Virus record (IMG/VR): IMGVR_UViG_3300033149_006357
Coordinates: 1-64,000 of that record
Source of the DNA: a virus
Reading direction: 5' to 3' (one strand)
DNA: 64,000 nucleotides
A program made the position numbers and the translations under genes. This document shows positions 1 through 14,522 of this stretch, piece after piece; position 1 is the stretch's first letter; every line of letters starts with the position of its first letter. Under the pieces are notes generated by a model. The model had not been told where the DNA came from. It saw only the letters and a program-made list of their open reading frames with translations, and did no database searches.

Positions 1-699
1 CTGGGATCGTCCTATGCCGGTAGTGGCAAAGGGATGTCCAGGAACGGACCTTCTCACGGTCCAAAGCAACGCACAAATCGTGGAAGCGTGAACCTGCCCG
101 TGTTTGGTGTCCCTGCTGGCTTCAAGCCAAAGGATTTGGTGCCCATACCCTGGATGGTAGCCTTGGCCCTCCAGGCAGATGGATGGTATTTGAGGAGCGA
201 CATCATCTGGGCGAAGGGATGGGACGGCCTGGGAATAGCTACGTATGGTTCTGCCATGCCGGGATCCCAGACGGATCGCCCCACAGGAACGCATGAGTAC
301 GTGTTTTTGCTCTCCAAGAGCAGACAATACTTTTATGATAACGAGGCGGTCAGGGTAAAGCATGCTACAGGAGACCATCAATTGCGCAGCGTCTGGCTGA
401 TCAGCCCAAAACCGTACAAGGGGCCGCATTACGCCGCGTTCCCGCCAGATCTGGTAGAGCCAATGGTGTTGGCCGGTACAAGCTCGAGCGGGTGCTGCGC
501 GGTGTGCAAAGATCCGTACCGCACCTGCGGGCATGATGCGGGGAGCGTTCCATGCACAGTGCTCGACCCATTTGCCGGGACGGGGAGGGTTGGCGTGGTA
601 AGCCTGGCGTATAGGAGGCACTTTATTGGCATCGAGGCCAAGCCAGAGTACGCGGGGATCATCAGGGATAGCTTGCGCGGATCAGACCTGCCATTTTAG
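1..699 (+). CDS. DNA N6-adenine/N4-cytosine methyltransferase (beta class), 5'-truncated by the window edge
   Basis: Frame is open from base 1 (LGSSYAGSGKG). Family motifs KDLVPIPWMVALALQADGWYLRSDIIWAK, HYAAFPPDLVEP and SAM-binding VLDPFAGTG. Confidence 0.9.
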   Translation: MGSSYAGSGKGMSRNGPSHGPKQRTNRGSVNLPVFGVPAGFKPKDLVPIPWMVALALQADGWYLRSDIIWAKGWDGLGIATYGSAMPGSQTDRPTGTHEYVFLLSKSRQYFYDNEAVRVKHATGDHQLRSVWLISPKPYKGPHYAAFPPDLVEPMVLAGTSSSGCCAVCKDPYRTCGHDAGSVPCTVLDPFAGTGRVGVVSLAYRRHFIGIEAKPEYAGIIRDSLRGSDLPF

Positions 700-707
700 G
701 AGTCGAG

Positions 708-887
708 ATGCTGAGGACAAGATACAACCGGTGGATTCGATTTTGCGAGGAACACAACTGTCGGCATGCGCTGAGGTGCTTCAAAAGGATGCTGGATGGG
801 GATGTATTGGCGCTGGATTTGGTAAGACACGAACCGTATCCTGCGTATCGGTGGCTGTATCCGGCGTTGCATCCGGTGAGGAAATGA
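708..887 (+). CDS. small hypothetical protein (~59 aa, MLRTRYNRW...)
   Basis: Translated by hand. AGGAG upstream; stop overlaps the next ATG. Confidence 0.4.
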   Translation: MLRTRYNRWIRFCEEHNCRHALRCFKRMLDGDVLALDLVRHEPYPAYRWLYPALHPVRK

Positions 888-1117
888 TGGATAAGTGTCA
901 AGTGTGTTTTGTGGGGGATATTACAACTGGTGGTTGCACATACTGCATAGGCGAGCGCTGCTGGGAATGCCACAATCCTATCCTGCGCGGGATGGGATAC
1001 ACCATACTCGGCGGGCGGTACTACCATTTGGGATGTTTTCGCTGGTACAGGCTGAGGAGTGACGGTGGAACCGCATATGGTCGAGATCGATGGCAGGGAA
1101 ATAGAGGGAGAAGATGA
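884..1117 (+). CDS. small Cys-rich (Zn-binding) protein
   Basis: GAGG then ATG inside ORF 626..1117. Three CxxC motifs plus HxxC. Confidence 0.5.
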   Translation: MMDKCQVCFVGDITTGGCTYCIGERCWECHNPILRGMGYTILGGRYYHLGCFRWYRLRSDGGTAYGRDRWQGNRGRR

Positions 1118-1294
1118 AAAGGAATGAAGAAGAGGCGGTATGGTTTGTGCTCGGATTGCTTTTGGTCTTTGGCATTCCAGTCATATCGCTAATAGCGCTC
1201 ATCATTAGCAATTGGGGGTAAGATGGAAAATGTGCATTTAGCAAGCGCGAATTTGTGTTGTCTTGATTGATCAACATCATCAGGAGGGTGTGAA

Positions 1295-1708
1295 ATGAAC
1301 GTAAAAGAGCTAGTAAACCGCGTGTTCAGGGATTGGTCCAGGGACATCGACGGTAAGATCCGCGAGATGTTGGACGAGCGGCTGCATGATACGATTGCAA
1401 AGCTCTTGGGTTTCGACGACTCTTATGGGCGATGGGAAATAGACCACTGCAACGGGCGGAATTCTCCCATTACCAGGTATCTTGACGAGAAGGTGCGCGA
1501 TGCCGTGAGGTGCTGGCTGGAGGAGCATTTTTGCGATCTGCCGGAGCCATCGGATGAATGGTACGAGGCACTGAGAAACGATTACTTGGGGGCGTACAAA
1601 TCTCATCTCAGGCGTCGTGCGTCGTTGTTAGCGGAGAGGGCGGCCAGAGACAGGCTCGACCTATTGTTGCGGGACGCCATAGACGAAGTGGATTTCAATT
1701 TTCAATGA
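1295..1708 (+). CDS. hypothetical protein
   Basis: AGGAGG SD; 137 aa; overlaps the start of the next gene. Confidence 0.65.
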   Translation: MNVKELVNRVFRDWSRDIDGKIREMLDERLHDTIAKLLGFDDSYGRWEIDHCNGRNSPITRYLDEKVRDAVRCWLEEHFCDLPEPSDEWYEALRNDYLGAYKSHLRRRASLLAERAARDRLDLLLRDAIDEVDFNFQ

Positions 1709-2085
1709 CTGCTTTTCACATCATCGTGCTTATCGCGGGCATCGTGTCGCAATACAGCCCAGGGGTAATGGAGGAGGTTGTGGCCAACCGCGTGGCCTGG
1801 GAACAGTTGCCATATCCATTGCCGGGGGTGGACGGTTACGTGGCGGTCAGGGACTGCGACCGCATCGGGGACATCATGTATTTGAGGCCTGTCGGCGGCG
1901 AGTGGGAAAAGTTTCTAGTCGCGGACTGCGCCATGCCGCCCGGGACCGATGGGGCGTGGGAGTGGATGACGGAGTACAACATACTGGCGGAGGTGGACTA
2001 TTGGACCGCCGTCAGGTGGAAAACGGTTGGGAGTGTGATAAGGGCGGAAGTTGGCATTAAAGTGGAAAGGGGCTTGATGCCATAG
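1705..2085 (+). CDS. putative RlpA/barwin-like double-psi beta-barrel protein with hydrophobic N-terminus
   Basis: Start MTAFHIIVLIAG overlaps the previous stop (ATGA). Pattern SQY...YVAVRDCDRIGD...LVADC...EVD resembles a DPBB fold. Confidence 0.4.
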   Translation: MTAFHIIVLIAGIVSQYSPGVMEEVVANRVAWEQLPYPLPGVDGYVAVRDCDRIGDIMYLRPVGGEWEKFLVADCAMPPGTDGAWEWMTEYNILAEVDYWTAVRWKTVGSVIRAEVGIKVERGLMP

Positions 2086-2324
2086 CTATATTGTACAAGA
2101 GACCCAGTGGGGTGTAGCGAGCCGTATTATACGAGAAGACCCAGAATGAAGTAGCGAGCCTCATTGTACAAGAGATCCAGAAAATGGAAGCGAGCCACAC
2201 TATATGAGAGAACCAGAAAATGGAGCGAGCCGTGTAATTCGAGAGATCCACATATGGGTAAGCGATTATGTAAGAGACCCATTACCAGAGAGGTACCATA
2301 TAAGAGATCCACCACCCACTAGCG
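2084..2324 (+). ncRNA. TIGR (tandem interspaced guide RNA) array: 5 intact ~36-nt units plus 2 degenerate units
   Basis: Unit = AGCCN + 9-nt spacer A + AGAGA(C/T/A)CCA + 9-nt spacer B + AGCG. Units start at 2084, 2120, 2157, 2193 and 2228 (36, 37, 36, 35, 37 nt); partial loop repeats at 2273 and 2303. Lies directly upstream of a Nop-domain gene. Confidence 0.85.
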
Positions 2325-2345
2325 TGAAGGAGAGAGCCGATCATT

Positions 2346-2972
2346 ATGAAGCGTTATATTGCGTTGCAGAAGCATTTACAGAGAGTGCGTATCGGGCTGC
2401 AAAATCGTTTGGGCAGAGACGGTTTGTACAAAGAGGAGCTGTTGGAACTGTGCGAGTCTATTATTGGACTTGAGGACAGGCTCGATAAGGAGATCGAGCA
2501 AACTGCAAAAGAACACCCTATCTATCACGAGTTGCTAAAGATCAAGGGCATCGGGCCAAAACTTGCATCCAGACTGGTGGCGTACATAGATATCCGCAAA
2601 TGCAACACCGTCAGTCAGCTATGGAGATACGCGGGGTATGGGGTAGTAGACGGAAAAGCGGAGAGGGCCAAAAAGGGGGAAACTCGTCATTACTGTGGTG
2701 AGCTAAAGACCATCCTATACCTGGTAGCCCTGGCGTTTTTGAGGTCTCACAGCCCCTACACGCACCTATACTACGAAGAGCGCGAAAAGCATCCGGACCT
2801 CAAGCCGATGCACCAGCACCTCAGGGGCCTGCGCAAGATGATCAAGATGTTTCTGTCCCACCTATGGGAAAAGTGGCGCACCCTAGAAGGGCTGGAGACG
2901 CGCAAAGCATACGTGATAGAAGTACTCGGACACACACACATACACGAGGCAAAAGACTATGGATGGGAATAA
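2346..2972 (+). CDS. tasA: TasA-like Nop-domain RNA-guided DNA-binding protein (IS110/Nop5-related, no nuclease domain)
   Basis: Coiled-coil N-terminus, then LLKIKGIGPKLASRLVAYIDIRKCNTVSQLWRYAGY and GLRKMIKMFLSHLW. Only 208 aa, with no RuvC DEDD or HNH domain. Adjacent to the dual-repeat array. Confidence 0.82.
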   Translation: MKRYIALQKHLQRVRIGLQNRLGRDGLYKEELLELCESIIGLEDRLDKEIEQTAKEHPIYHELLKIKGIGPKLASRLVAYIDIRKCNTVSQLWRYAGYGVVDGKAERAKKGETRHYCGELKTILYLVALAFLRSHSPYTHLYYEEREKHPDLKPMHQHLRGLRKMIKMFLSHLWEKWRTLEGLETRKAYVIEVLGHTHIHEAKDYGWE

Positions 2973-3129
2973 ATGGCTTATGGCGCTGACCATTGTATGT
3001 ATGCTAGCAGATGGGCATCTTGGATGCAAAGCCGAACAAGGGCGGGAAGAGTACCAAAAAAAGCTAATGGAAGAAAAGCGTAAAAGATGGGAGGATCTAC
3101 TACGCTCTGCGGCAGCTACACAGGACTAG
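2959..3129 (+). CDS. small hypothetical protein (56 aa, MDGNKWLMALTIVCML...)
   Basis: Hand-translated ORF overlapping the tasA 3' end. Confidence 0.3.
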   Translation: MDGNKWLMALTIVCMLADGHLGCKAEQGREEYQKKLMEEKRKRWEDLLRSAAATQD

Positions 3130-3407
3130 ATGCCGGGCAGATGCATCCCTGCAGAATGAACCGGAAGACAGATCGAGGGACCGCTCGATGATCCCAATGT
3201 GGTGATATCACAAAGAGGAGGCGCCTGATGAGGGAGAGATAGGGACAAGGGCGCGGAGTGAATGCGAGGGGGCGGCATCCCGATGAGGCATGGGGGTGAT
3301 TTGGGGGGAGGAGGGGACTATCGCTGTCGTAGCAGTACGGTGCACGAGAAAACAGATGGGGGGTATTTGATAAATGACGATTAACGATGTACTTTTATGT
3401 ATAACTG

Positions 3408-3700
3408 GCGATACTTAGCGATACTTAGCGTGCCGTGACGATATTGTATTAACACTTGCGCAACCTAGGGATAACGTTAGCTAGTGTGTATACACAAACG
3501 ACAGTTTGCTATGCCTAGGGAATGCCAGATAGCACTTGCAATACTTTTTTAGCTGCAGCGCGGCTTGCAATACATAGCGTATATGTAAGTGCGATACGCG
3601 CCTTACATGTAAGACCGATACACTGATACGGCGATACACCGATACACCGATACGCGTAAGGGCAACATACTGTTACACTGTTACACGTAAGACCGATACG
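3408..3700. repeat. non-coding region of short direct repeats (candidate origin or genome-end region)
   Basis: GCGATACTTA x2, a run of (C)GATAC(A) units at ~3590-3700, TGTTACAC x2, GTAAGACCGATAC x2. Confidence 0.55.
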
Positions 3701-3822
3701 CCGGCAAGCCGCCAAACTAGTTGACATAAATAACCTTAAAATTGACTGAACGTAGATATTGCCAAGTAGCGCCCGCTCGAGGGCGCGTGAGGTTGTGTTA
3801 CGTTGTGTTCTGTAAAGCGCGT

Positions 3823-3851
3823 TTGCAAGTCTCGGCGCCCTGTGGTATACT
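3823..3851 (+). promoter_or_regulatory. sigma70-type early promoter with extended -10
   Basis: TTGCAA - 17 bp - TATACT, preceded by TGTGG. Confidence 0.75.
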
Positions 3852-3919
3852 TGGCGTGTGCGTGGAGGCGCATACGGCCGCTCTTTACCAGCCAAATAGA
3901 CTAGGAAGGAAGGAAAATC

Positions 3920-4711
3920 ATGTCGTACAAAGACCTAATCTCGGGCGCATCGGAAGAGTTTTTCGAGAGTGTCGATCTACGCAATGTGATCGAACGCTTC
4001 CCTACAATCACACTCTGTAGCGCGCTGTCGGCTGCTTGCAGCACTTGGCGTGAGTATGACGATGTGGAGGCGCAAGAGCAGATCGACGCGATCGAGAAAC
4101 AACTAGCCGCTCTTGCACAAGAGCGGCAAGGGCTCGATTTCTCAGTTTTTGCGCAAGCCTTGGCTGGGAAGGAAGCAAGCGAGATTGCCAGTATGCTTGC
4201 GGATCGAGAGAAGCGCCTTGCAGAGATTGCGAGCGAGCGAGAGAAACTTCAGGTCGAGAAGTCGCTTCTCCAAGAGCGACGCAAGACAGAAGCAGTACTT
4301 GCGTTCGTCAAGGCTTGTGGGGGGCGCCCGAGCACAGGGCGCGCGGCGACGTCCGATCTTACGGCTCTTGCGTGGTCTTGCAAAGCTTACGGAAGCGTTT
4401 GGACGATCTACGGATCACCTAGGTCTTGGCTTGTGTGGAAGGACAACAAGCCGGTCGCGTCAAGCAAGGACGTAGACATGGGTATCACAAGCCGAACTGG
4501 TTTTCGCAAGGTGATCTATGTCTTGGCCGGCAAGCTTGCCGGTTACGGCAAGGGTACCAATGCCTTGTCCAAGGCACACAAGGACAACATGTTGGGCGGC
4601 ATCCATGCCGGCGGATCGGCCGGCGTGGTAGACTTGTCCGATGTGGGCCCTTGGGCGCAAGGCTACACTGAGTTTTTCGCGCCCCCCAAGTCAAAGGACA
4701 AGACCAACTAG
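3920..4711 (+). CDS. first early gene; hypothetical protein with N-terminal coiled coil
   Basis: AAGGAAGGA SD; 263 aa; lies between a promoter and a terminator-like hairpin. Confidence 0.75.
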   Translation: MSYKDLISGASEEFFESVDLRNVIERFPTITLCSALSAACSTWREYDDVEAQEQIDAIEKQLAALAQERQGLDFSVFAQALAGKEASEIASMLADREKRLAEIASEREKLQVEKSLLQERRKTEAVLAFVKACGGRPSTGRAATSDLTALAWSCKAYGSVWTIYGSPRSWLVWKDNKPVASSKDVDMGITSRTGFRKVIYVLAGKLAGYGKGTNALSKAHKDNMLGGIHAGGSAGVVDLSDVGPWAQGYTEFFAPPKSKDKTN

Positions 4712-4726
4712 CAGAGTACCACTAGC

Positions 4727-4770
4727 AGAGCGCATGGCTATAGCGGCCGGCCATGCGCTCTTTCCCTTCT
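4727..4770 (+). terminator. putative intrinsic terminator
   Basis: 12-bp stem AGAGCGCATGGC/GCCATGCGCTCT followed by a pyrimidine tract. Confidence 0.55.
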
Positions 4771-4962
4771 CTGCTAGCGTAAAAGTTACCCATTGCAAAC
4801 TCTGGTACGTAAAGCAGACTATCACAAAGTGCAATGGGTAAAGCAGATCATCGCGCCTCACGGATTGTGTTAGCCATAATCCGGGGGGAACGATGGTTAA
4901 CAAAAGCATAATCGCGATGGTCGAGGCGAGCGCAGCGTATCCCCCACTATCACCCACAATGG

Positions 4963-5017
4963 TATCGTTACCATGGACGTGATAGTATCGTTACCATATC
5001 CACGGTGATATCGTTAC
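4963..5017 (+). repeat. three TATCGTTAC direct repeats with 23-bp period
   Basis: Copies start at 4963, 4986 and 5009. Confidence 0.7.
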
Positions 5018-5035
5018 ACTAGAAAGGAAATACTC

Positions 5036-5320
5036 ATGATCAAAAAAGAGATCCCGGTCAAGGTCGCGGTCCTGACAATCTCAAGGCAGATCTTGCGACA
5101 GGTTCCTTATCGTCCCATGCTGCCAAGAGATGATAGGGAAATCATTGGCTGGTTCTGGGCGGATATCAAGGGCATCCGCAATGGAACCAACATTTGCGTC
5201 TTGGTACAAGATCTTTCCGTGGGCGATCTGGCTGTAGAGGACGGTAGGATGGATCGTCGTACAGGAAGGGTCAGGGGCAGGTATGGAGAGGTCGTGCCGG
5301 ATCACATCTATGTCAGGTAG
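5036..5320 (+). CDS. hypothetical early protein
   Basis: AGAAAGGA SD, 94 aa. Confidence 0.65.
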   Translation: MIKKEIPVKVAVLTISRQILRQVPYRPMLPRDDREIIGWFWADIKGIRNGTNICVLVQDLSVGDLAVEDGRMDRRTGRVRGRYGEVVPDHIYVR

Positions 5321-5332
5321 AAAGGATCTAAC

Positions 5333-5671
5333 ATGATCGAGAATGTAGTTGATCTGCTATGGCATCCGCATTTCCATAGGTTGGTCGGGGCTCACATCGA
5401 GCTGGACCTTCCTGCGGTCGGCCTGGTCAGGGTCGACCAGAAACGCATGGTCGTGTGGGCCGATTTAGCCCACGACCTGGATCGGGAAGGATTCGACTTT
5501 GAAGCGGTCGAGAATTATCTCGGTCAAGGGTGGTACATTGTCAAGGAAGTCGATGGCAATGGTGGAAGGATCGTCGCCATAACTCCAGACTACGACACAG
5601 CCAAAACGATCGCGGAATGCGATGAGGAGCACCGCGATATATGGCGTAACGGGAAGTTTGTATCCTGGTAG
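5333..5671 (+). CDS. hypothetical early protein, paralog of 5801..6169
   Basis: Shares LDLPxVG, ADLAxDLD, GWYIVKEV, AECDExHRDIW with 5801..6169. Confidence 0.8.
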   Translation: MIENVVDLLWHPHFHRLVGAHIELDLPAVGLVRVDQKRMVVWADLAHDLDREGFDFEAVENYLGQGWYIVKEVDGNGGRIVAITPDYDTAKTIAECDEEHRDIWRNGKFVSW

Positions 5672-5800
5672 TCTTAATGCCCCGCCCGTCGGGCGATAAT
5701 AGGCGGGCCAAAGGGGATTCCGCTCTTTTCACGGGAAGAGCATGGCCAAAGCCCCCGGTCGCGCTCTGCCATATCTGCGTCAAGTAGAAAGGATCTTACA

Positions 5801-6169
5801 ATGAACGAGCACATTCTCGACCTCATTTGCAGCCCGTATTTCAGGGGGCTGCGTGAGGGTGGCGTCAGGCTCGATCTGCCCGTGGTGGGCAAGATCATCG
5901 TCGATCAGAACCGCGAGGTCATCCAGGCGGATCTTGCGGATGACCTCGACCAGGCCGGATATTCTGGCTGGCACATTCTTGATTTGGCGAAAGAGTACAT
6001 CGGTGAGGGCTGGTACATCGTCAAAGAGGTGAGACGAAACGCCGATGGTGCTATCACCGAGATCAGGCAAATCATTGCGATGGCAGACTATGCGACCGCC
6101 AAGGCTGTTGCCGAATGCGATGAAGCCCACCGCGATATCTGGTGCGGCGGGAAGCTCGTATCCTGGTAA
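5801..6169 (+). CDS. hypothetical early protein, paralog of 5333..5671
   Basis: Same GTAGAAAGGATCT leader and shared motifs. Confidence 0.8.
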   Translation: MNEHILDLICSPYFRGLREGGVRLDLPVVGKIIVDQNREVIQADLADDLDQAGYSGWHILDLAKEYIGEGWYIVKEVRRNADGAITEIRQIIAMADYATAKAVAECDEAHRDIWCGGKLVSW

Positions 6170-6341
6170 TCCATTATGCCCGCCCGTCGGCATTGTAGGC
6201 GGGCAGGAGCGATTGATATGGTGGTGGCCGTCATCCTTTTGTCCCCAGCGATTGGGCACGCAATCGCCGGGGTGTTCATTCGGTGGTACGAAAAGCACCA
6301 CCCAATCTATGTGCCGGATTGGGTGGTAGAAAGGATGCCGG

Positions 6342-6602
6342 ATGACTGAAAAACACCCAATCGTACATCGCATTGCCCTCGCGGTCACCGCCGCCGTATT
6401 TGAGGCGGTAGATGAGGCCGGGACGGATTACGACTCACTGTTCTGGGCGCTGACCAGGCGAGCCCGACCGATCGTGAAATCGCTGGAAACGATCGTCGGT
6501 CATCCTGTGGGGTTTGGGTTTGAGCTCACGGATGGCTGCTCGGTCGATGTATCCGTCGGCGAAAATGAGATCTTTGCAAGCATCGGAAAGAGGATCGCGT
6601 AG
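6342..6602 (+). CDS. hypothetical early protein
   Basis: GTAGAAAGGAT SD, 86 aa. Confidence 0.6.
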   Translation: MTEKHPIVHRIALAVTAAVFEAVDEAGTDYDSLFWALTRRARPIVKSLETIVGHPVGFGFELTDGCSVDVSVGENEIFASIGKRIA

Positions 6603-6723
6603 TAAGTGCTCAATCGGGCGTGTCCCCAAGGCGCTAGGCCGAATGGCCGTGAATGCGCACCACCCAGAATGCGCGCCCGATTGAAATCTCAAATCGGGAT
6701 CCGCACTAAGAGAGGGAAGTGAA

Positions 6724-6936
6724 ATGTGGCTCTCGGTAATAGGATTGGCGGTAGGCATAATCTGTATCGCAATCGCGGCTTGGGACTTGGCGGCCAACCA
6801 AATCCCTGTCGCCAAAGATTGTGATCGGCTATGCTATATGGCTGCGAAGGTCGCGCTGGACTTGCTCGACAAGGAAAACGTAGACGCGGCAAGGGATGTG
6901 CTCAAACGGCTATTGGAAGAACTTCAAGATTGCTAG
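6724..6936 (+). CDS. small membrane-anchored protein
   Basis: N-terminal hydrophobic helix MWLSVIGLAVGIICIAIAAW. Confidence 0.55.
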   Translation: MWLSVIGLAVGIICIAIAAWDLAANQIPVAKDCDRLCYMAAKVALDLLDKENVDAARDVLKRLLEELQDC

Positions 6937-7185
6937 CCGATAATCCCCAGAAATGGGAATCTGCCAGGGATGGGCGCTGTTCGGCAGACCAAGAGGAGGG
7001 CGAATGAATAGTTACAGAAGGTTCTGGCGCGTATGCGCCTGGAACAACAAGGGGAATCGCACCCGCGTCGTACTGAGGCCACGCCGGGAGCGGCGACGAG
7101 CAGCGCGGGCGCTATGGAAAGCCATCAAGAAGTGATATGGCCCGGGCGAGCTCCTGCACCGGGCAAAGAAGAAAGGAGCAAAGAA

Positions 7186-7509
7186 GTGGATCGGAAAGAG
7201 CTAGAAAATGCTGTACTGGATGCAGCGCTTGCGATTTGCAAGAGATGGGGGCCGACCGTCATCGCCCCCGGGATTGGCAAAGTTGAGAGATCGCGGGATG
7301 GATACTCTGCTTATGTGACGCCAGGGGCAGATGCGTGGGGAACCATCCCACTGGGATCGGAATGGCAGGCACCGTCGCTGCGCGATCTGGAGACCGCCGA
7401 AAGACTTGTCATTGGGATCGCGCGGTACTGTGCAAGTGAGGACTTTCTCGGCAAGGTCGCCGGGTCGATTAGACGGATGAAGGCGATAGCCAGGGCCATT
7501 CAATCGTAA
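7186..7509 (+). CDS. hypothetical early protein (ELENAVxDAA...WG family)
   Basis: GTG start after AAAGGAG; paralog of the N-terminal half of 7625..8197. Confidence 0.7.
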   Translation: MDRKELENAVLDAALAICKRWGPTVIAPGIGKVERSRDGYSAYVTPGADAWGTIPLGSEWQAPSLRDLETAERLVIGIARYCASEDFLGKVAGSIRRMKAIARAIQS

Positions 7510-7565
7510 CACGCACAACAATAGCCCATCGCTGCTTTTGCGGCTTTGCAGGCGATGGGAATATC

Positions 7566-7604
7566 AAGCCGCACCGGATTTCGATCTGGTGCGGCTTTTT
7601 TCTT
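7566..7604 (+). terminator. intrinsic terminator
   Basis: AAGCCGCACCGGAT-TTCG-ATCTGGTGCGGCTT followed by a T tract. Confidence 0.75.
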
Positions 7605-7624
7605 CTAACGAAAGCGAGTATCAG

Positions 7625-8197
7625 ATGATCGGAAAAGAGCGAATGGAACTAGAAAATGCGGTGTTCGATGCAGCCAAGACAGTCATCGAAAAATGGGGAA
7701 ATCCGATACGAACAGAGTTCGGCGAAATCTCCGGGTCGGAATCTGGGAATCAGATCAACATTCGTGAGGGCTGGTGGAGCACGGAAGTTGGTCGCTGGTG
7801 CGATCCCAACATGGACGATTTATGGCGTGCGAAGAGGGTCATCGAAACGATTGTATCGTATTGCGCGATAGAGGATTTTTCCAACAAAGTGTATGGGGCT
7901 GCCCAATGCTTGAGAGCAATCACCAACGCCATCGAGAGTAAAATGAGAAAAGTAAGCTCAGAAGTTAAGGACGTTTGGTGGATTAGATTGGGAAGGCGTG
8001 CCTCTACCGAGGCGCAAAAGAAATACGCCGAGCGCTTCGATGGCGAGATGTACAAACGAGCAACGGAAGGCTTATCTGGCGTGGCAGCCAATGTACTGAT
8101 CGACGATGCATTGGCCCTGTGCGGGTCACCCCATTACAAGCTGTCGCGCTCGGAATGGGATATGCCCCAAATCAAGTTCCTAGAACTGTTTTTGTGA
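7625..8197 (+). CDS. hypothetical early protein (ELENAVxDAA...WG family plus extra C-terminal domain)
   Basis: Shares ELENAV, KWG, YCAxEDF and AIxxAI with 7186..7509. Confidence 0.7.
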   Translation: MIGKERMELENAVFDAAKTVIEKWGNPIRTEFGEISGSESGNQINIREGWWSTEVGRWCDPNMDDLWRAKRVIETIVSYCAIEDFSNKVYGAAQCLRAITNAIESKMRKVSSEVKDVWWIRLGRRASTEAQKKYAERFDGEMYKRATEGLSGVAANVLIDDALALCGSPHYKLSRSEWDMPQIKFLELFL

Positions 8198-8321
8198 TTG
8201 AGAAAAGAAGATAGGATGAGACAGGTCGAATTGGTCAGATTCGAAGCGATTACCACGGCCGGGTCAAGCTCAGCCCTGGAACGTGGGCGTTCGAGCGCCC
8301 AATCCCAAGAAAGGAAGAAAG

Positions 8322-8618
8322 GTGATAACGAAAATCAGAGCCCCCGACGCCGATTGCGCCCGGCTGGCAATGGCCACCGTCGATGCCATTGAGGAATGGG
8401 GAGCAGGGTCGCAAGAGGAAGGATTGGAAACGGCGATAGACGCGGTGCTCCGTGATGAGCGGGATCGGATCTTCGAGATGCACAACATCTACCCGGCGAT
8501 CTCAATCGAGGTTGTCGATAGCCACCCGTCTGTGGGCGGCGATGGGTACATTGACATCGAGATCGATGAAGGGTACGCCGATATCGCCGTGTACGTTCAG
8601 TACCCATTCCCAAGATAA
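8322..8618 (+). CDS. acidic hypothetical protein
   Basis: GTG after purine-rich SD, inside ORF 8283..8618. Confidence 0.55.
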   Translation: MITKIRAPDADCARLAMATVDAIEEWGAGSQEEGLETAIDAVLRDERDRIFEMHNIYPAISIEVVDSHPSVGGDGYIDIEIDEGYADIAVYVQYPFPR

Positions 8619-8646
8619 GTCCAGAAATGGACTTGAAGGGGGCAGG

Positions 8647-9015
8647 ATGAAGAAACTGGTTGGAGCAATCACGGGGGTCGCGATGCTGGCCACGTTGAAA
8701 TGGGGAAACCCCGTTTCAACGCCAGAAGGATCAATCCTTAGGGTATCCCCGGATACGACAATGGTCAGCATCGAGTATCCCTACCACCGTTCGGTGATCG
8801 TCGATCCCGCCACACGCGAGAAAGATGTCGTCTGGGCGGCGAACGTGGTCGCGGCGGTCATTGACCGCTGTCTGGACGACTATCTGGTGAAAGAGCTCCG
8901 GGCGTCCGTGAAGCGGATGGTACGGGAGGCTGTGAAAAATGCCGATCTCGGAATGGGCGGAGGAAAATCTGAGGGAAACCATTTGAGAGGGAACGATGAA
9001 AAAGATAACATTTGA
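8647..9015 (+). CDS. hypothetical protein (distant KWGNP-family paralog)
   Basis: MKKLVGAITGVAMLATLKWGNPVSTPEGSI resembles EKWGNPIRTEFGEI in 7625..8197. Confidence 0.5.
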   Translation: MKKLVGAITGVAMLATLKWGNPVSTPEGSILRVSPDTTMVSIEYPYHRSVIVDPATREKDVVWAANVVAAVIDRCLDDYLVKELRASVKRMVREAVKNADLGMGGGKSEGNHLRGNDEKDNI

Positions 9016-9313
9016 ACAGATCGTATCGGGCGAGTTTGCCCGATCTGGCAAGACCTGGGGCGACCGAATCGCCCCACATATCCACTGCACAGATGGGGCG
9101 GTGCTATCGGTGCAGGCATCATCCCTCCACTATTGCTCGCCCCGCGATGACCATGGGCCATATCAGTCTGTGGAAGTGGGCTATCCTACTAGCCCGCCAC
9201 CCCCCTCGTGGGATCGATACCAGGATGGCGAGAATCCCGTTTGGGGATTCGTTCCCGTGAATCTCGTTAGGCAATTCATCGAGGATCACGGCGGCGAATC
9301 CGACCAGGGCTAG
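8996..9313 (+). CDS. conserved phage hypothetical protein
   Basis: SVQASxxHYCSPR...YxSVEVGYP...VWGFVPV pattern recalled from phage hypothetical proteins. Confidence 0.65.
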   Translation: MKKITFEQIVSGEFARSGKTWGDRIAPHIHCTDGAVLSVQASSLHYCSPRDDHGPYQSVEVGYPTSPPPPSWDRYQDGENPVWGFVPVNLVRQFIEDHGGESDQG

Positions 9314-9332
9314 CACCCAGGGATGAGGATAC

Positions 9333-9590
9333 ATGTTGATCTCGGAATGGGTGGACGAAAATCTGACAGAGGAAGAGATCGCCGATATCGCCACATATGG
9401 GGCGCTCGGGCAACCAGGGCTCACATACGATGGTGAAATCCTGGAAATCTACGACCTCTGCCACAGAGACATTTGGGACAGCCTGGAAGACGATATCTCT
9501 CTGGCAGGGATAGACCATCTCGAGCAGTTGGAGATCGGGCTGACTATCCAGGCGGTCGAGAGAGAGTGCACGAGGAGGATACAATGTTGA
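9333..9590 (+). CDS. small acidic protein, candidate DNA mimic
   Basis: 21 D/E versus 4 R and no K in 85 aa; GAGGA SD. Confidence 0.6.
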   Translation: MLISEWVDENLTEEEIADIATYGALGQPGLTYDGEILEIYDLCHRDIWDSLEDDISLAGIDHLEQLEIGLTIQAVERECTRRIQC

Positions 9591-9973
9591 TCCGATGTGT
9601 TGACAAAATGGCTTACCGCCGAAATGGCGAAGGCTGGGAAAGGGTGCAAATCTCGGTTGGAGATACCGTCTGCGGCGAGATAGAGGACATCGTGGCTGCG
9701 CCTCGAGATCGTGGCGTGAAGCTCATCGTGCAGGATGGTCGAGTGATCGCAACACGTCACGAGCCATATTGCGAGGCGCCGCGCCCGACAAACCGCGTGC
9801 GGATTATTGGAGACACCATCATGAGGTGCTGGACGGATGGTACGGCGCGACCGTCCAGGGCGCTCATGGCGGACGATGTGATCGATTTTGCCGATCTCGA
9901 ATCTTTGCTGGACATCGAGGTCGAGGACGGCAGGTGGATCCGCGTCGAAAATGGAGTGGTAATAGTGCAATGA
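9584..9973 (+). CDS. hypothetical protein with internal duplication
   Basis: GAGGAGG SD; two similar beta-rich halves (LIVQDGRVI / IRVENGVVI). Confidence 0.6.
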   Translation: MLIRCVDKMAYRRNGEGWERVQISVGDTVCGEIEDIVAAPRDRGVKLIVQDGRVIATRHEPYCEAPRPTNRVRIIGDTIMRCWTDGTARPSRALMADDVIDFADLESLLDIEVEDGRWIRVENGVVIVQ

Positions 9974-10055
9974 CAACGTACATCTGCATGCGCAAGCCCA
10001 AAGCCAGACGTATCGACGGCATGGATCACTACGCGCTCTTCAAGGATTCGTACAA

Positions 10056-10364
10056 ATGAGATACCTGATTAACTTTGGGCCGCCGCTGACGGCCGAGGAA
10101 AAAGATACTGTATCCGGTTATCGCCTTCTACAAGCAGAGGGCGATGACGCGGAAGAAAAGATCCGCAGCCTCGGCCGCGACGGTGATTGGTGGTGGACAT
10201 CCGACATCACCGTCCGATTGCCGAACGATCCGATAGAGGCCGCGATCATCGCACTCAAGATTGGCGATGCAATGCCGCTTTGGCCGACTGTCATCGACCT
10301 GCGTGACAACAGCCTCATCGATCTTGAAGCTATTGCGGTATGGGGCGCCCCGCGCTGCGGATGA
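10056..10364 (+). CDS. Csx15-like protein
   Basis: YLINFGPPLT...WWTSDITVRLP...AAIIALKI...WPTVIDLR...LIDLEAI follows the Csx15 pattern (LNFSHPLT...WQTxxILVNxP...AAxLLAEL...FPxIxRLR...IINLQAV) as recalled. Confidence 0.55.
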   Translation: MRYLINFGPPLTAEEKDTVSGYRLLQAEGDDAEEKIRSLGRDGDWWWTSDITVRLPNDPIEAAIIALKIGDAMPLWPTVIDLRDNSLIDLEAIAVWGAPRCG

Positions 10365-10371
10365 GGAGGAA

Positions 10372-10830
10372 ATGATGGGACATCTGACCGACATCGCTTA
10401 CGCGGCCGCATCAGACATCGACGTGGCCATGCGGATGGCCAATGGCGACTGGGCGGCGATGGCCATAGCACGATTGGCCAAGGTCGACCTGGAGGCCGGA
10501 TTAGAGGCCGCAAGAGCGGTAGAAAAGGCAAGGAAGGTGAAATATCTGGTCAATTTCGGAAAGCGCTTATCGAAGTCAGAGCGCGAAGTGTTTCTGACTT
10601 ACGCGGTCGTTCAGCCGACCGGAAACACAGTAGATGAAAAGATCGACAATTGCCATTTCACGACAGGGCAATGGCAAGATGCCGATCTCTACATCATGCT
10701 GCCGGATGATCCAGTCGAGGCCGTCATTCTCATGCTGAAGATTGCAAAGCGTGTCAAGGAATTGCCGGATATCGTGGTCTTGTCCGATGGTTATCCAAAG
10801 TTCATTCCAACAGAGGAGGTCATGTCATGA
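10372..10830 (+). CDS. Csx15-like protein with N-terminal helical extension (alternative GTG start at 10537)
   Basis: GAGGAGG SD. YLVNFGKRLS...FTTGQWQDADLYIMLPDDPVEAVILMLKI is a clear paralog of 10056..10364. Confidence 0.55.
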   Translation: MMGHLTDIAYAAASDIDVAMRMANGDWAAMAIARLAKVDLEAGLEAARAVEKARKVKYLVNFGKRLSKSEREVFLTYAVVQPTGNTVDEKIDNCHFTTGQWQDADLYIMLPDDPVEAVILMLKIAKRVKELPDIVVLSDGYPKFIPTEEVMS

Positions 10831-11141
10831 ACGTAACCGTGAAGGTAAGCGATCTGGTGTTCGATATGGAAACCCTTCATGCCGCCATTGCCGTGGCAAA
10901 GGCGAATGATGGGGAAGTCCGCATCGATGGCAATACGGTCGACATCTCCGGCCTCTATACAGAGGTCGACATGTGCAGGGCAAGACTGCGTTACGTCGAC
11001 CTCGAGGAGAGATTGTACGATGTCGAGCGCGAACTCTTGACGCTCAATCCGTATGATTTCATCGACCGCGGCCTTCTGCCCGAAGATCATCCATACGCGC
11101 TGCGGCTGGTGACCAAGGAGGATAGTGTTGTCTACATCTAG
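10827..11141 (+). CDS. hypothetical protein
   Basis: GAGGAGG SD; start overlaps previous stop. Confidence 0.6.
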   Translation: MNVTVKVSDLVFDMETLHAAIAVAKANDGEVRIDGNTVDISGLYTEVDMCRARLRYVDLEERLYDVERELLTLNPYDFIDRGLLPEDHPYALRLVTKEDSVVYI

Positions 11142-11210
11142 GCTTGTTCGCCCGCCGGGACAGGTTGACGCCCTGCGATGGCGGGCCACACCGATAAAAG
11201 GAGACCGAAA

Positions 11211-11474
11211 GTGAAGCCAAGCGAATGGGCGAAAGTGATCGGGGCGATGCTTATCGCCGCAGCGGACAACCCGGATATGTTCAACTTTGAGGAAGACGAT
11301 TCCGGGATGTCGCCACACGACAAATCGATCATCAACATCGCACGCCGGCTCTTTCCCGATGAGCCAGTGCACAAGCAGGCGCTGTACGCCGCGACCGCCG
11401 CGTACATCGTGGACACGATCTTGGTAAAGATGCCAAAGGTTGAGGCCGCGATCGATGGCCTCGTGGAGGATTAA
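11211..11474 (+). CDS. hypothetical protein
   Basis: GTG after AAGGAG inside ORF 11178..11474. Confidence 0.55.
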   Translation: MKPSEWAKVIGAMLIAAADNPDMFNFEEDDSGMSPHDKSIINIARRLFPDEPVHKQALYAATAAYIVDTILVKMPKVEAAIDGLVED

Positions 11475-11477
11475 GAC

Positions 11478-11756
11478 ATGGGCGAGCTGACAAAGTGGTT
11501 CGAAGATGTGGCGAGGGTCATCGTCCTTGCCACGAACATCGATGGGTTCCTGGAGAACATTGCGGATGTCGCCGGTCCCCACGCCATGGCAATAGCGAAA
11601 GCGACGGATGTCGTCATGCCAGACGCAGATGCAATGAAAAAGGCATGCGTCGCTACCGTAGCCCTGATGACGGTCGAGTCGATGGCGGGTCACACAGAAT
11701 CCGTACTGAGCAGCGCGATCCGGCTAGACCGCCATCTGAGATCGGTGATGAACTAG
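11478..11756 (+). CDS. hypothetical protein
   Basis: GGAGGA SD, 92 aa. Confidence 0.6.
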   Translation: MGELTKWFEDVARVIVLATNIDGFLENIADVAGPHAMAIAKATDVVMPDADAMKKACVATVALMTVESMAGHTESVLSSAIRLDRHLRSVMN

Positions 11757-11799
11757 CATCATCGGGCTAGCATCCCGTTACCACTGCCAAGGTATAATT

Positions 11800-12333
11800 A
11801 TGTATCCAGAACTTTGCTCAAACTGTAATGAGATGTTGGACAGAATGGCGGCAGATCGCGGCATCCACAAGATCGAGGCCGCCGAGATAGCATGGAGAGA
11901 CCGCCTTTACTGCGGCGGGCGAAAATGCGCATCGCCGGAGCTCCTATCGGAGACAGACGATTGCGTAGCGACCGCCGTCGTCGATGGCCAGCACTGGACA
12001 GCAACGCTGGAAAAGAACGCCATCGTATGGGAGCTCAACGGCAACGTTGTTGATACATGGCGCGATTGCTCACAAATCACGTTTCGTGAGATCGTCGGGA
12101 TGAGGCCGCCCTTGAAGAGGGAAGACTTCCACAAAGTGTCAAAGATATCCATTGATATGCTCAAGGGCGTGACGTACACGCCGCCCAAGAAAGTATCCGT
12201 TCCAGGTGTGGACCTGTGGGATGTGTACATGTGGGTTGACACAATGACCGATAATGACATCGAAATGGAGGGCCTTGATACCTCGAAAAAAGTCATTGTG
12301 TTAGACGACTCAATCTACATAAGGAGAAAATAA
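11800..12333 (+). CDS. hypothetical protein with Cys pairs
   Basis: 177-aa ORF; stop overlaps next start. Confidence 0.55.
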   Translation: MYPELCSNCNEMLDRMAADRGIHKIEAAEIAWRDRLYCGGRKCASPELLSETDDCVATAVVDGQHWTATLEKNAIVWELNGNVVDTWRDCSQITFREIVGMRPPLKREDFHKVSKISIDMLKGVTYTPPKKVSVPGVDLWDVYMWVDTMTDNDIEMEGLDTSKKVIVLDDSIYIRRK

Positions 12334-13885: not shown

Positions 13886-14522
13886 GGAAGCAGCGCCGAC
13901 AAAATTGATCGTCACCGATAATGTAGCACACAAGATCGCGGTGCTCATGGCATCCGAGCCGAACGTGGAAATCGGCGGCGCTGGATACGTGGAAGGCAAC
14001 GAATGGACGCGCATCTGGTGCGGTACTACAGAGGCCAGCGTCGGCGAACACGAGATGTCCGCCGAGTCATTGGCCAACATCACGATGGAAGCCCTGAAGG
14101 CCGGATTGAAGCCCGCAGGGCTCAGATTGTACTGGCATACACATGGCGTCCATGGATTTGCCCCATCGTTTTCGCAGGTGGATTGGGACACAATCTATAA
14201 GCAAGCATCCCACGGGCTAAGGATCGTCAACGTCGTGTTTGGGGGTCTCACCAAATATGATGCGGTCGAGGCATGGAAAATCACGCCCGCAAGATATGTG
14301 GTGCGCAATGTAGAACTAGAATGGAGGCTGAGAGATGATAAGGGTTATTGGGATTGGGCATCTCGGTTCCTGGACGGCACTGGCATTAGAAAGAAGAGGA
14401 TGCCAGGTGTCAGTCTGGGATATGGACACGGTGGAGCCGCGCAATCTCCCGGTGTCCCCGTACACAAAGGACCAGGTTGGCCTTTTGAAGATAGAGGCGA
14501 TTGGTCAGCTTGGGACCTTTGA
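13866..14522 (+). CDS. JAB/MPN+ (JAMM) metallo-isopeptidase
   Basis: N-terminal EIGG glutamate plus WHTHG...SFSQVD (HxH...SxxD). Confidence 0.85.
   Translation: MALRYIEEAAPTKLIVTDNVAHKIAVLMASEPNVEIGGAGYVEGNEWTRIWCGTTEASVGEHEMSAESLANITMEALKAGLKPAGLRLYWHTHGVHGFAPSFSQVDWDTIYKQASHGLRIVNVVFGGLTKYDAVEAWKITPARYVVRNVELEWRLRDDKGYWDWASRFLDGTGIRKKRMPGVSLGYGHGGAAQSPGVPVHKGPGWPFEDRGDWSAWDL

Follow-up and report, generated by a model that had tools for sequence, protein, structure and literature searches.

Is a 208-codon phage gene that standard annotation calls a transposase, and that is preceded by a run of short phased repeats, part of an RNA-guided DNA-binding system, or is it what remains of an insertion sequence? 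The gene lies in viral record IMGVR_UViG_3300033149_006357, a genome of 77,079 bp that is estimated to be complete and has 96-bp direct terminal repeats. The window analysed here is the first 64 kb (64,000 nucleotides) of this record, and positions refer to the window unless given as genome positions. The genome encodes a tape-measure protein, a portal and a large terminase, and is therefore that of a tailed phage. Megablast of window positions 1-12000 against GenBank phages gave no match, Rfam gave no match, and PADLOC reported nothing for the 208-aa gene or its neighbours. The phage carries a tRNA-Thr (TGT) at genome positions 73147-73219 and a tRNA-Trp (CCA) at genome positions 74412-74485. 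Upstream of the repeats, on the same strand, an N6/N4 DNA methyltransferase (PF01555, E 4e-22) is encoded at 34-699. As set out below, protein family, fold, array anatomy and comparative evidence, taken together, make it probable that the locus is a dual-repeat TIGR-TasA system of this phage.

The repeats occupy positions 2086-2329 on the + strand, in the gap that separates an unannotated gene, with its stop codon at 2085, from the 208-aa gene starting at 2346. An edge repeat, AGCGAGCC, alternates with a loop repeat, AGAGANCCA; the spacers between them are about 9 nt long and the period is 35-37 nt. The original prediction had described two alternating repeats with ~9-nt spacers at a ~36-nt period. 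This arrangement is present, with the refinements that only four units are intact and that the flanks on both sides are decayed. The features of the locus are as follows.

2063-2092, + strand: weak sigma-70-like promoter match (TGGAAA, 18 nt, TATATT), directly before the array
2086-2115, + strand: decayed first unit U0, without a proper edge; spacer A TATTGTACA, loop AGAGACCCA, spacer B GTGGGGTGT
2116-2152, + strand: intact unit U1, 37 nt
2153-2188, + strand: intact unit U2, 36 nt
2189-2223, + strand: intact unit U3, 35 nt
2224-2260, + strand: intact unit U4, 37 nt
2116-2260, + strand: order within the intact units, edge AGCGAGCC plus one further base (N), spacer A of 9 nt, loop AGAGANCCA (10 nt in U1), spacer B of 8-10 nt
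2261-2267, + strand: 3′-truncated edge repeat AGCGATT, which would give the last guide its 3′ end
2268-2329, + strand: eroded units, comprising two loops (2273 and 2303), AGGTACCA at 2291 resembling an edge, CCACCCACT resembling spacer B, and AGCG at 2321, a truncated edge
2327-2336, + strand: purine-rich stretch AAGGAGAGAG resembling a ribosome-binding site, ahead of the tasA start codon, as read from the sequence
2346-2972, + strand: tasA, 208 aa, coiled-coil hairpin (helices 2-22 and 29-54) and Nop-type RNA-binding domain, without nuclease

The window contains exactly four copies of the edge repeat AGCGAGCC, all on the + strand (at 2116, 2153, 2189 and 2224) and 37, 36 and 35 nt apart, and the 77-kb genome has none beyond these on either strand. 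The number of copies is near chance (4 against 2.5 expected), but their clustering and phasing are not. The loop repeat AGAGANCCA was found nine times in the window compared with 1.66 expected, and none of 100 shuffles contained nine or more. Six of these copies fall within 2098-2311, starting at 2098, 2171, 2207, 2242, 2273 and 2303, and an additional 10-nt form of the loop, AGAAGACCCA, is located at 2134. Tandem Repeats Finder reported a period of 36 across 2116-2250. Both repeats read AG...CC (box D and box C); the base following the edge CC is variable (G, T, A and G in the four copies), and the final A of CCA is not kept. TIGR arrays typically finish in a 3′-truncated edge repeat (PMC12045711), and such a repeat follows U4 here; the eroded units beyond it continue into the ribosome-binding region of tasA. 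No further arrays were found elsewhere in the genome. A CRISPR-Cas locus was considered and rejected: such loci have a single repeat of 25-36 nt, spacers of similar size and cas genes, whereas the repeats here are two in kind and 8-10 nt long, with ~9-nt spacers, and PADLOC gave no such call.

Promoter-like sites in the array region are not in excess of shuffles, and the match at 2063-2092 is a hint only. The array could be read through from the + strand genes upstream. No terminator-like site was found, and none separates the array from tasA; with the array placed ahead of the gene, transcription could plausibly continue into tasA. The RNA of the array shows no significant folding (z -0.85), in keeping with a dual-repeat system. 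Downstream of tasA, about 790 bp (3130-3920) are non-coding and contain several short tandem repeats; this stretch may be a regulatory or origin region, and includes the following.

3408-3430: tandem repeat, GCGATACTTA in 2.3 copies
3614-3653: tandem repeat, ACCGATAC in 5 copies
3669-3686: tandem repeat, ACTGTTAC in 2.2 copies
3822-3851: promoter-like site

The open frame of tasA reaches only six codons further upstream than the start given above. A second contig, of 77,157 bp, encodes a protein identical to TasA, and the nearest protein among 5.8 billion is at most 47% identical over its full length. A phmmer search of the PDB with TasA returned TaTasR (9mty, E 6.3e-29), with TasA residues 3-198 aligned on TasR 116-314, and SpTasH (E 1e-18). 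A family profile built from 16 sequences gave E-values of 2e-52 for TasR, 2e-41 for TasH and 0.038 for the IS621 transposase. TasA passes the NCBIfam model NF052498 (TIGR_Tas_endo) with 153.7 bits against a cut-off of 100, and fails the NCBIfam IS110 model NF033542 with 39 bits against a cut-off of 140. Foldseek with the AlphaFold model of TasA (pLDDT 90.3) gave TM-scores of 0.79-0.85 to TasR and TasH, and VIA-align gave Z-scores of 21.9 for TasR, 20.1 for TasH and 14.5 for the IS110-family protein ISCro4. The structural likeness to Tas proteins was thus as anticipated. Nop5, the box C/D snoRNP protein whose partners are fibrillarin and L7Ae, was absent from the Foldseek and VIA lists, whose entries were Tas and IS110 proteins followed by generic coiled coils. 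The Nop label used here for TasA is based on the published structure of TasR (PMC12045711).

TasA aligned in VIA-align only to TasR 114-322 and TasH 71-308, and the RuvC and HNH nuclease domains of these proteins therefore have no counterpart in it. The array directly adjoins a 208-aa gene with neither domain, as had been proposed from the sequence, and the open reading frame upstream of the array matched none of the nuclease families searched. TasA residues Y189 and H196 align without gaps to Y289 and H296 of SpTasH, which cut the guide precursors of that system (PMC13421893). In an alignment of 16 homologues, Y189 does not vary and H196 is conserved in at least 90%, and every family-invariant residue is kept in TasA. 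A 2026 preprint reports that dual-repeat systems conserve the Tyr/His dyad and that stem-loop systems lack it.

Pfam recognises in TasA only the C-terminal domain of IS110 transposases (PF02371, Transposase_20; E 2.8e-7), and PHROG 4285 calls it 'transposase' (E 2e-39). The expectation that a pipeline would mislabel the gene as an IS110 transposase therefore holds for these two resources, but not for NCBIfam, whose release 20 contains the TIGR-Tas model that TasA passes. Automatic names are misleading for this protein, since NF052498 is named 'RNA-guided endonuclease' and TasA lacks a nuclease domain, and Pfam and PHROGs give a transposase.

A scan of viral contigs yielded 80 loci encoding relatives of TasA at 23-49% identity. 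At 53 of the 80 there were at least three GCGAGCC-type edges spaced 33-39 nt apart; every one of these arrays runs on the strand of tas, and the opposite strand had none. The array directly neighbours the tas gene, on its upstream or its downstream side, in the closest relatives and in most others. The repeats of the closest relatives read AGCGAGCC(A/G/T) for the edge and AG..A.CC(A/G) for the loop, and they share with this locus the varying last base of the edge box C. These arrays, together with the matches to TasR and to NF052498 and the structural alignment, uphold the view that the locus has the TIGR-Tas architecture.

Box D was compared between edge and loop in 51 arrays of related viral loci. 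It was AG in both repeats in 29, UG in both in 17 and mixed in five, and so concordant in 46, which is the covariation between edge and loop described by Faure et al. (2025, Science; PMC12045711). The original prediction had singled out AG rather than UG after each spacer as a mark of this variant. AG is present, but it does not distinguish the locus: with 29 of the 51 arrays AG/AG, it is the common state in the clade. The locus is small by comparison, with four edges against a median of eight per locus in relatives, and its units of 37, 36, 35 and 37 nt vary in length, whereas most relatives have units of strictly 36 nt. Among 185,579 species-representative prokaryote genomes, a close relative of TasA was encoded in only one, an uncultured Gammaproteobacteria MAG (CAYNYL010000014.1) in which the match is cut by the contig end; that MAG aside, the TasA clade is viral or metagenomic.

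The spacers of the array resemble one another. Measured over 8 nt, the pairwise distance averages 3.2-3.7 for spacer A and 3.7-4.5 for spacer B, compared with a mean of 5.6 and minima of 4.17 and 4.3 in 40 arrays of relatives, and within-array spacer diversity is the lowest of the 41 arrays. Spacer A of U0-U3 has five variable sites, all of them transitions, with the consensus YAYTRTAYR. Spacer B is the same in U2 and U3 and otherwise close to random. The four edge repeats do not differ at any of their 8 nt while the spacers differ at 33-53% of positions, a sign that the repeats are under selection. The two repeat positions that vary freely differ in five of the six pairs of units, more than the spacers do. 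This pattern fits units derived from a common ancestor with selection on their repeats, and fits an eroding array equally well. The likeness of the guides may reflect a half-site shared by their targets, or could be the outcome of drift after duplication instead of active targeting. It is doubtful, on present evidence, that the guides, instead of having been acquired independently, form a mutational family that shares the spacer-A half-site and is aimed at related sites, for example a diverged tandem repeat of the host chromosome.

The geometry of the target site was derived within this analysis: the published 8-nt 3′ overhang fixes it, and the predicted site therefore reads spacer B first and then the reverse complement of spacer A. 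The whole 77-kb phage genome was scanned for self-targets in both possible geometries, with spacer A taken as 9 or 10 nt and allowing 0-2 nt of gap and at most 3-4 mismatches. No ungapped site with three or fewer mismatches to any guide was present in the genome. The single gapped self-match was to the decayed U0, at genome positions 74178-74196, with two mismatches and the layout spacer B, 1 nt, reverse complement of spacer A; it lies inside a 129-aa open reading frame, and about 0.1 such matches are expected by chance. Exact scans of viral contigs gave two matches for U1, none for U2, 19 for U3 (as a 17-mer) and none for U4. None was in sequence related to the phage: most fell in AT-rich viral contigs, and one U1 match fell inside a 972-aa open reading frame on a contig of 52% GC that shares nothing with the phage. 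Given their placement at gene starts or within genes, and their collapse to a few families, these matches look like chance and were rejected as targets. A scan of metagenome contigs with the U2 site gave 20 matches in about 13 families, which is about the number expected by chance. Thus no convincing target was found for the guides in the phage genome or the viral contigs, or for U2 in the metagenome contigs.

The reverse complements of spacer A were also compared with -10 hexamers (TATAAT, TACAAT and TATAGT), and the resemblance was judged too weak. U1 and U3 resemble T7-type promoter words, again too weakly to be accepted. Because the spacers are mutually related, such resemblances are not independent of one another.

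One metagenome contig provides a lead. JACSEG010000041.1 contains a 19-nt tandem repeat with the unit ATGGATGTACATTGAGAAA at 14057-14153, in at least 4.9 copies and running into the contig end. The repeat is intergenic, and the contig is bacterial chromosomal DNA that encodes LeuRS, prephenate dehydratase and an SLT-domain protein. One copy of the repeat matches the predicted U2 target in the published geometry at 18 of 18 positions, and three copies match at 17 of 18; U2 is the best-formed of the guides. The tetranucleotide composition of the contig has the highest correlation with that of the phage among 99 loci (r 0.555, where the two halves of the phage give 0.66). No match to the other guides, no sequence shared with the phage and no tas gene were found on this contig, and in viral contigs the majority variant of the repeat matched one AT-rich gene family only. 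The repeat is a post-hoc lead that concerns one guide, not a result, and we think it improbable that it is the U2 target.

The locus might be read as a decayed IS110-family insertion sequence, in which tasA would be the C-terminal half of a transposase that has lost its DEDD domain and the repeats would be remnants of a bridge-RNA region or of element ends. The Pfam and PHROG labels agree with this reading. However, no DEDD_Tnp_IS110 domain (PF01548) was found in any of the six frames of the whole genome with stops read through, in searches whose positive controls worked. TasA matches the Tas model and the TasR structure far above their IS110 and IS621 counterparts (153.7 bits with a cut-off of 100 against 39 bits with a cut-off of 140, and E 2e-52 against 0.038). 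The upstream frame has no nuclease-family match, and dozens of relatives have the same short protein and phased arrays. A broken DEDD domain, which had been named at the outset as the sign of a decayed IS110, was thus sought and not found; this explanation is refuted, with a negligible chance of being right. Alternatively, the repeats could be binding sites in the DNA, such as operators or iterons, or could have clustered by chance and have nothing to do with tasA. The region is intergenic, AT-rich and promoter-like, and several copies of spacer A resemble -10 hexamers of the opposite strand. Yet the two-repeat, strand-fixed architecture with its 36-nt period travels with Tas homologues that are only 25-47% identical, the AG/UG covariation between edge and loop fits RNA binding by a symmetric protein dimer, and the motifs form no array elsewhere in the genome. 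A role as DNA sites, or chance, is therefore very improbable.

A further explanation accepts the family but regards the locus as a relic, with tasA intact, an array that is eroding after local duplications, guides that drift and have ceased to match any target, and little or no present function. This would account for the small number of intact units relative to the median of eight edges in relatives, the decayed units on both flanks and the variable unit length. The five transition-only sites in spacer A of U0-U3 are as expected for mutation from one ancestor, and the low spacer diversity and the outcome of the target searches also agree with erosion. The perfect conservation of the edges next to spacers that differ at 33-53% of positions, however, argues that selection has acted on the repeats, and TasA retains all family-invariant residues together with the Tyr/His pair. 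Short arrays are also not peculiar to this phage, as four or fewer edges were found in 14 of the 53 relatives with arrays. Finally, the freely varying repeat positions exceed the spacers in divergence, unlike the pattern left by simple recent duplication. We consider it rather unlikely that the locus is such a relic, and favour a dual-repeat TIGR-TasA system.

The closest described counterparts are dual-repeat TIGR-TasA systems such as FpTIGR/FpTasA of Flavonifractor plautii (Faure et al. 2025; PMC12045711), which are likewise phage-carried and have a stand-alone Nop-domain Tas protein without a nuclease. The locus shares with systems of this type the alternation of edge and loop repeats, the two ~9-nt spacers per ~36-nt unit, an array that adjoins tas on its own strand, and box C/D motifs common to both repeats. 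It differs from dual-repeat TIGR-TasA systems in having four intact units, where arrays there have 'most often 5 to 15' (PMC12045711), and in its 35-37-nt wobble, an edge box C whose final base is not constant and the mutual resemblance of its guides; its box D is AG, a state common in the clade. TaTasR (9mty) and SpTasH (9w03, 9w04 and 21kl) have the same Nop domain and coiled-coil dimerisation hairpin, at 33% and 26% identity respectively, and SpTasH has the same Tyr/His processing pair. The RuvC domain of TasR (1-115) and the HNH domain of TasH (1-69) are absent from TasA, which should therefore bind DNA without cutting it. MbTasA, PlTasA and catalytically dead TasR are likewise effectors without nuclease activity and serve as RNA-guided repressors (bioRxiv 10.64898/2026.09.09.750476 and 10.64898/2026.08.11.744272), and as with these, sequence-specific DNA binding and steric repression are expected here. 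PlTasA differs in that its guides are of the stem-loop kind, and the Tyr/His loop is missing from stem-loop clades, whereas the present locus is of the dual-repeat type and keeps this loop. The IS110 and IS621 bridge-RNA recombinases (8wt6 and 9t56) have a homologous RNA-binding domain (PF02371; Z 14.5), but the TasA locus has no DEDD domain, bridge RNA or element ends, and TasA scores below the family cut-off.

From these comparisons, a dual-repeat TIGR-TasA system at this locus would be expected to work as follows. The array would be transcribed with tasA or just ahead of it, as one precursor, with no terminator between them. A dimer of TasA would bind the AG...CC motifs of the edge and loop repeats, and Tyr189 and His196 would cut the precursor inside the edge repeats, releasing about four guides of ~36 nt (35-37 nt) that TasA would retain. 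In each guide, one ~9-nt spacer would pair with one strand of a contiguous 18-bp DNA site and the second spacer with the other strand. The TasA complex would bind and bend this DNA, leaving it uncut, and would thereby block transcription or another DNA transaction in a host or in a competing element. The anatomy of the locus, its family membership, the keeping of the catalytic pair and of the invariant residues, the selection on the repeats and the conserved architecture of relatives are seen directly in the sequences; we infer the expression, processing, binding and biological target of the system. MbTasA acts as an RNA-guided transcriptional repressor (bioRxiv 10.64898/2026.09.09.750476), and the programmable DNA binding or repression predicted here agrees with that report.

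The dual-repeat TIGR-TasA family, which has already been described (PMC12045711), gains in this locus a new member that is small and somewhat eroded. The family is catalogued in thousands of loci, and in most respects this is a routine instance; what it adds is a phage genome that is complete, has defined ends and carries one minimal array. With four guides, an effector of 208 aa and the array in the 5′ leader of the effector gene, it would be a convenient small test case. Only the relatedness of the guides and the tandem-repeat lead merit further attention. Faure et al. (2025; PMC12045711) state that the natural targets and the mode of array growth of the TIGR family are unknown. The transition-only relatedness of spacer A bears on how guides are acquired and evolve in TIGR arrays. 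If the guides are indeed a mutational family aimed at related sites, they would provide a candidate natural target for a TasA, and would argue that TIGR arrays become diverse through duplication and point mutation.
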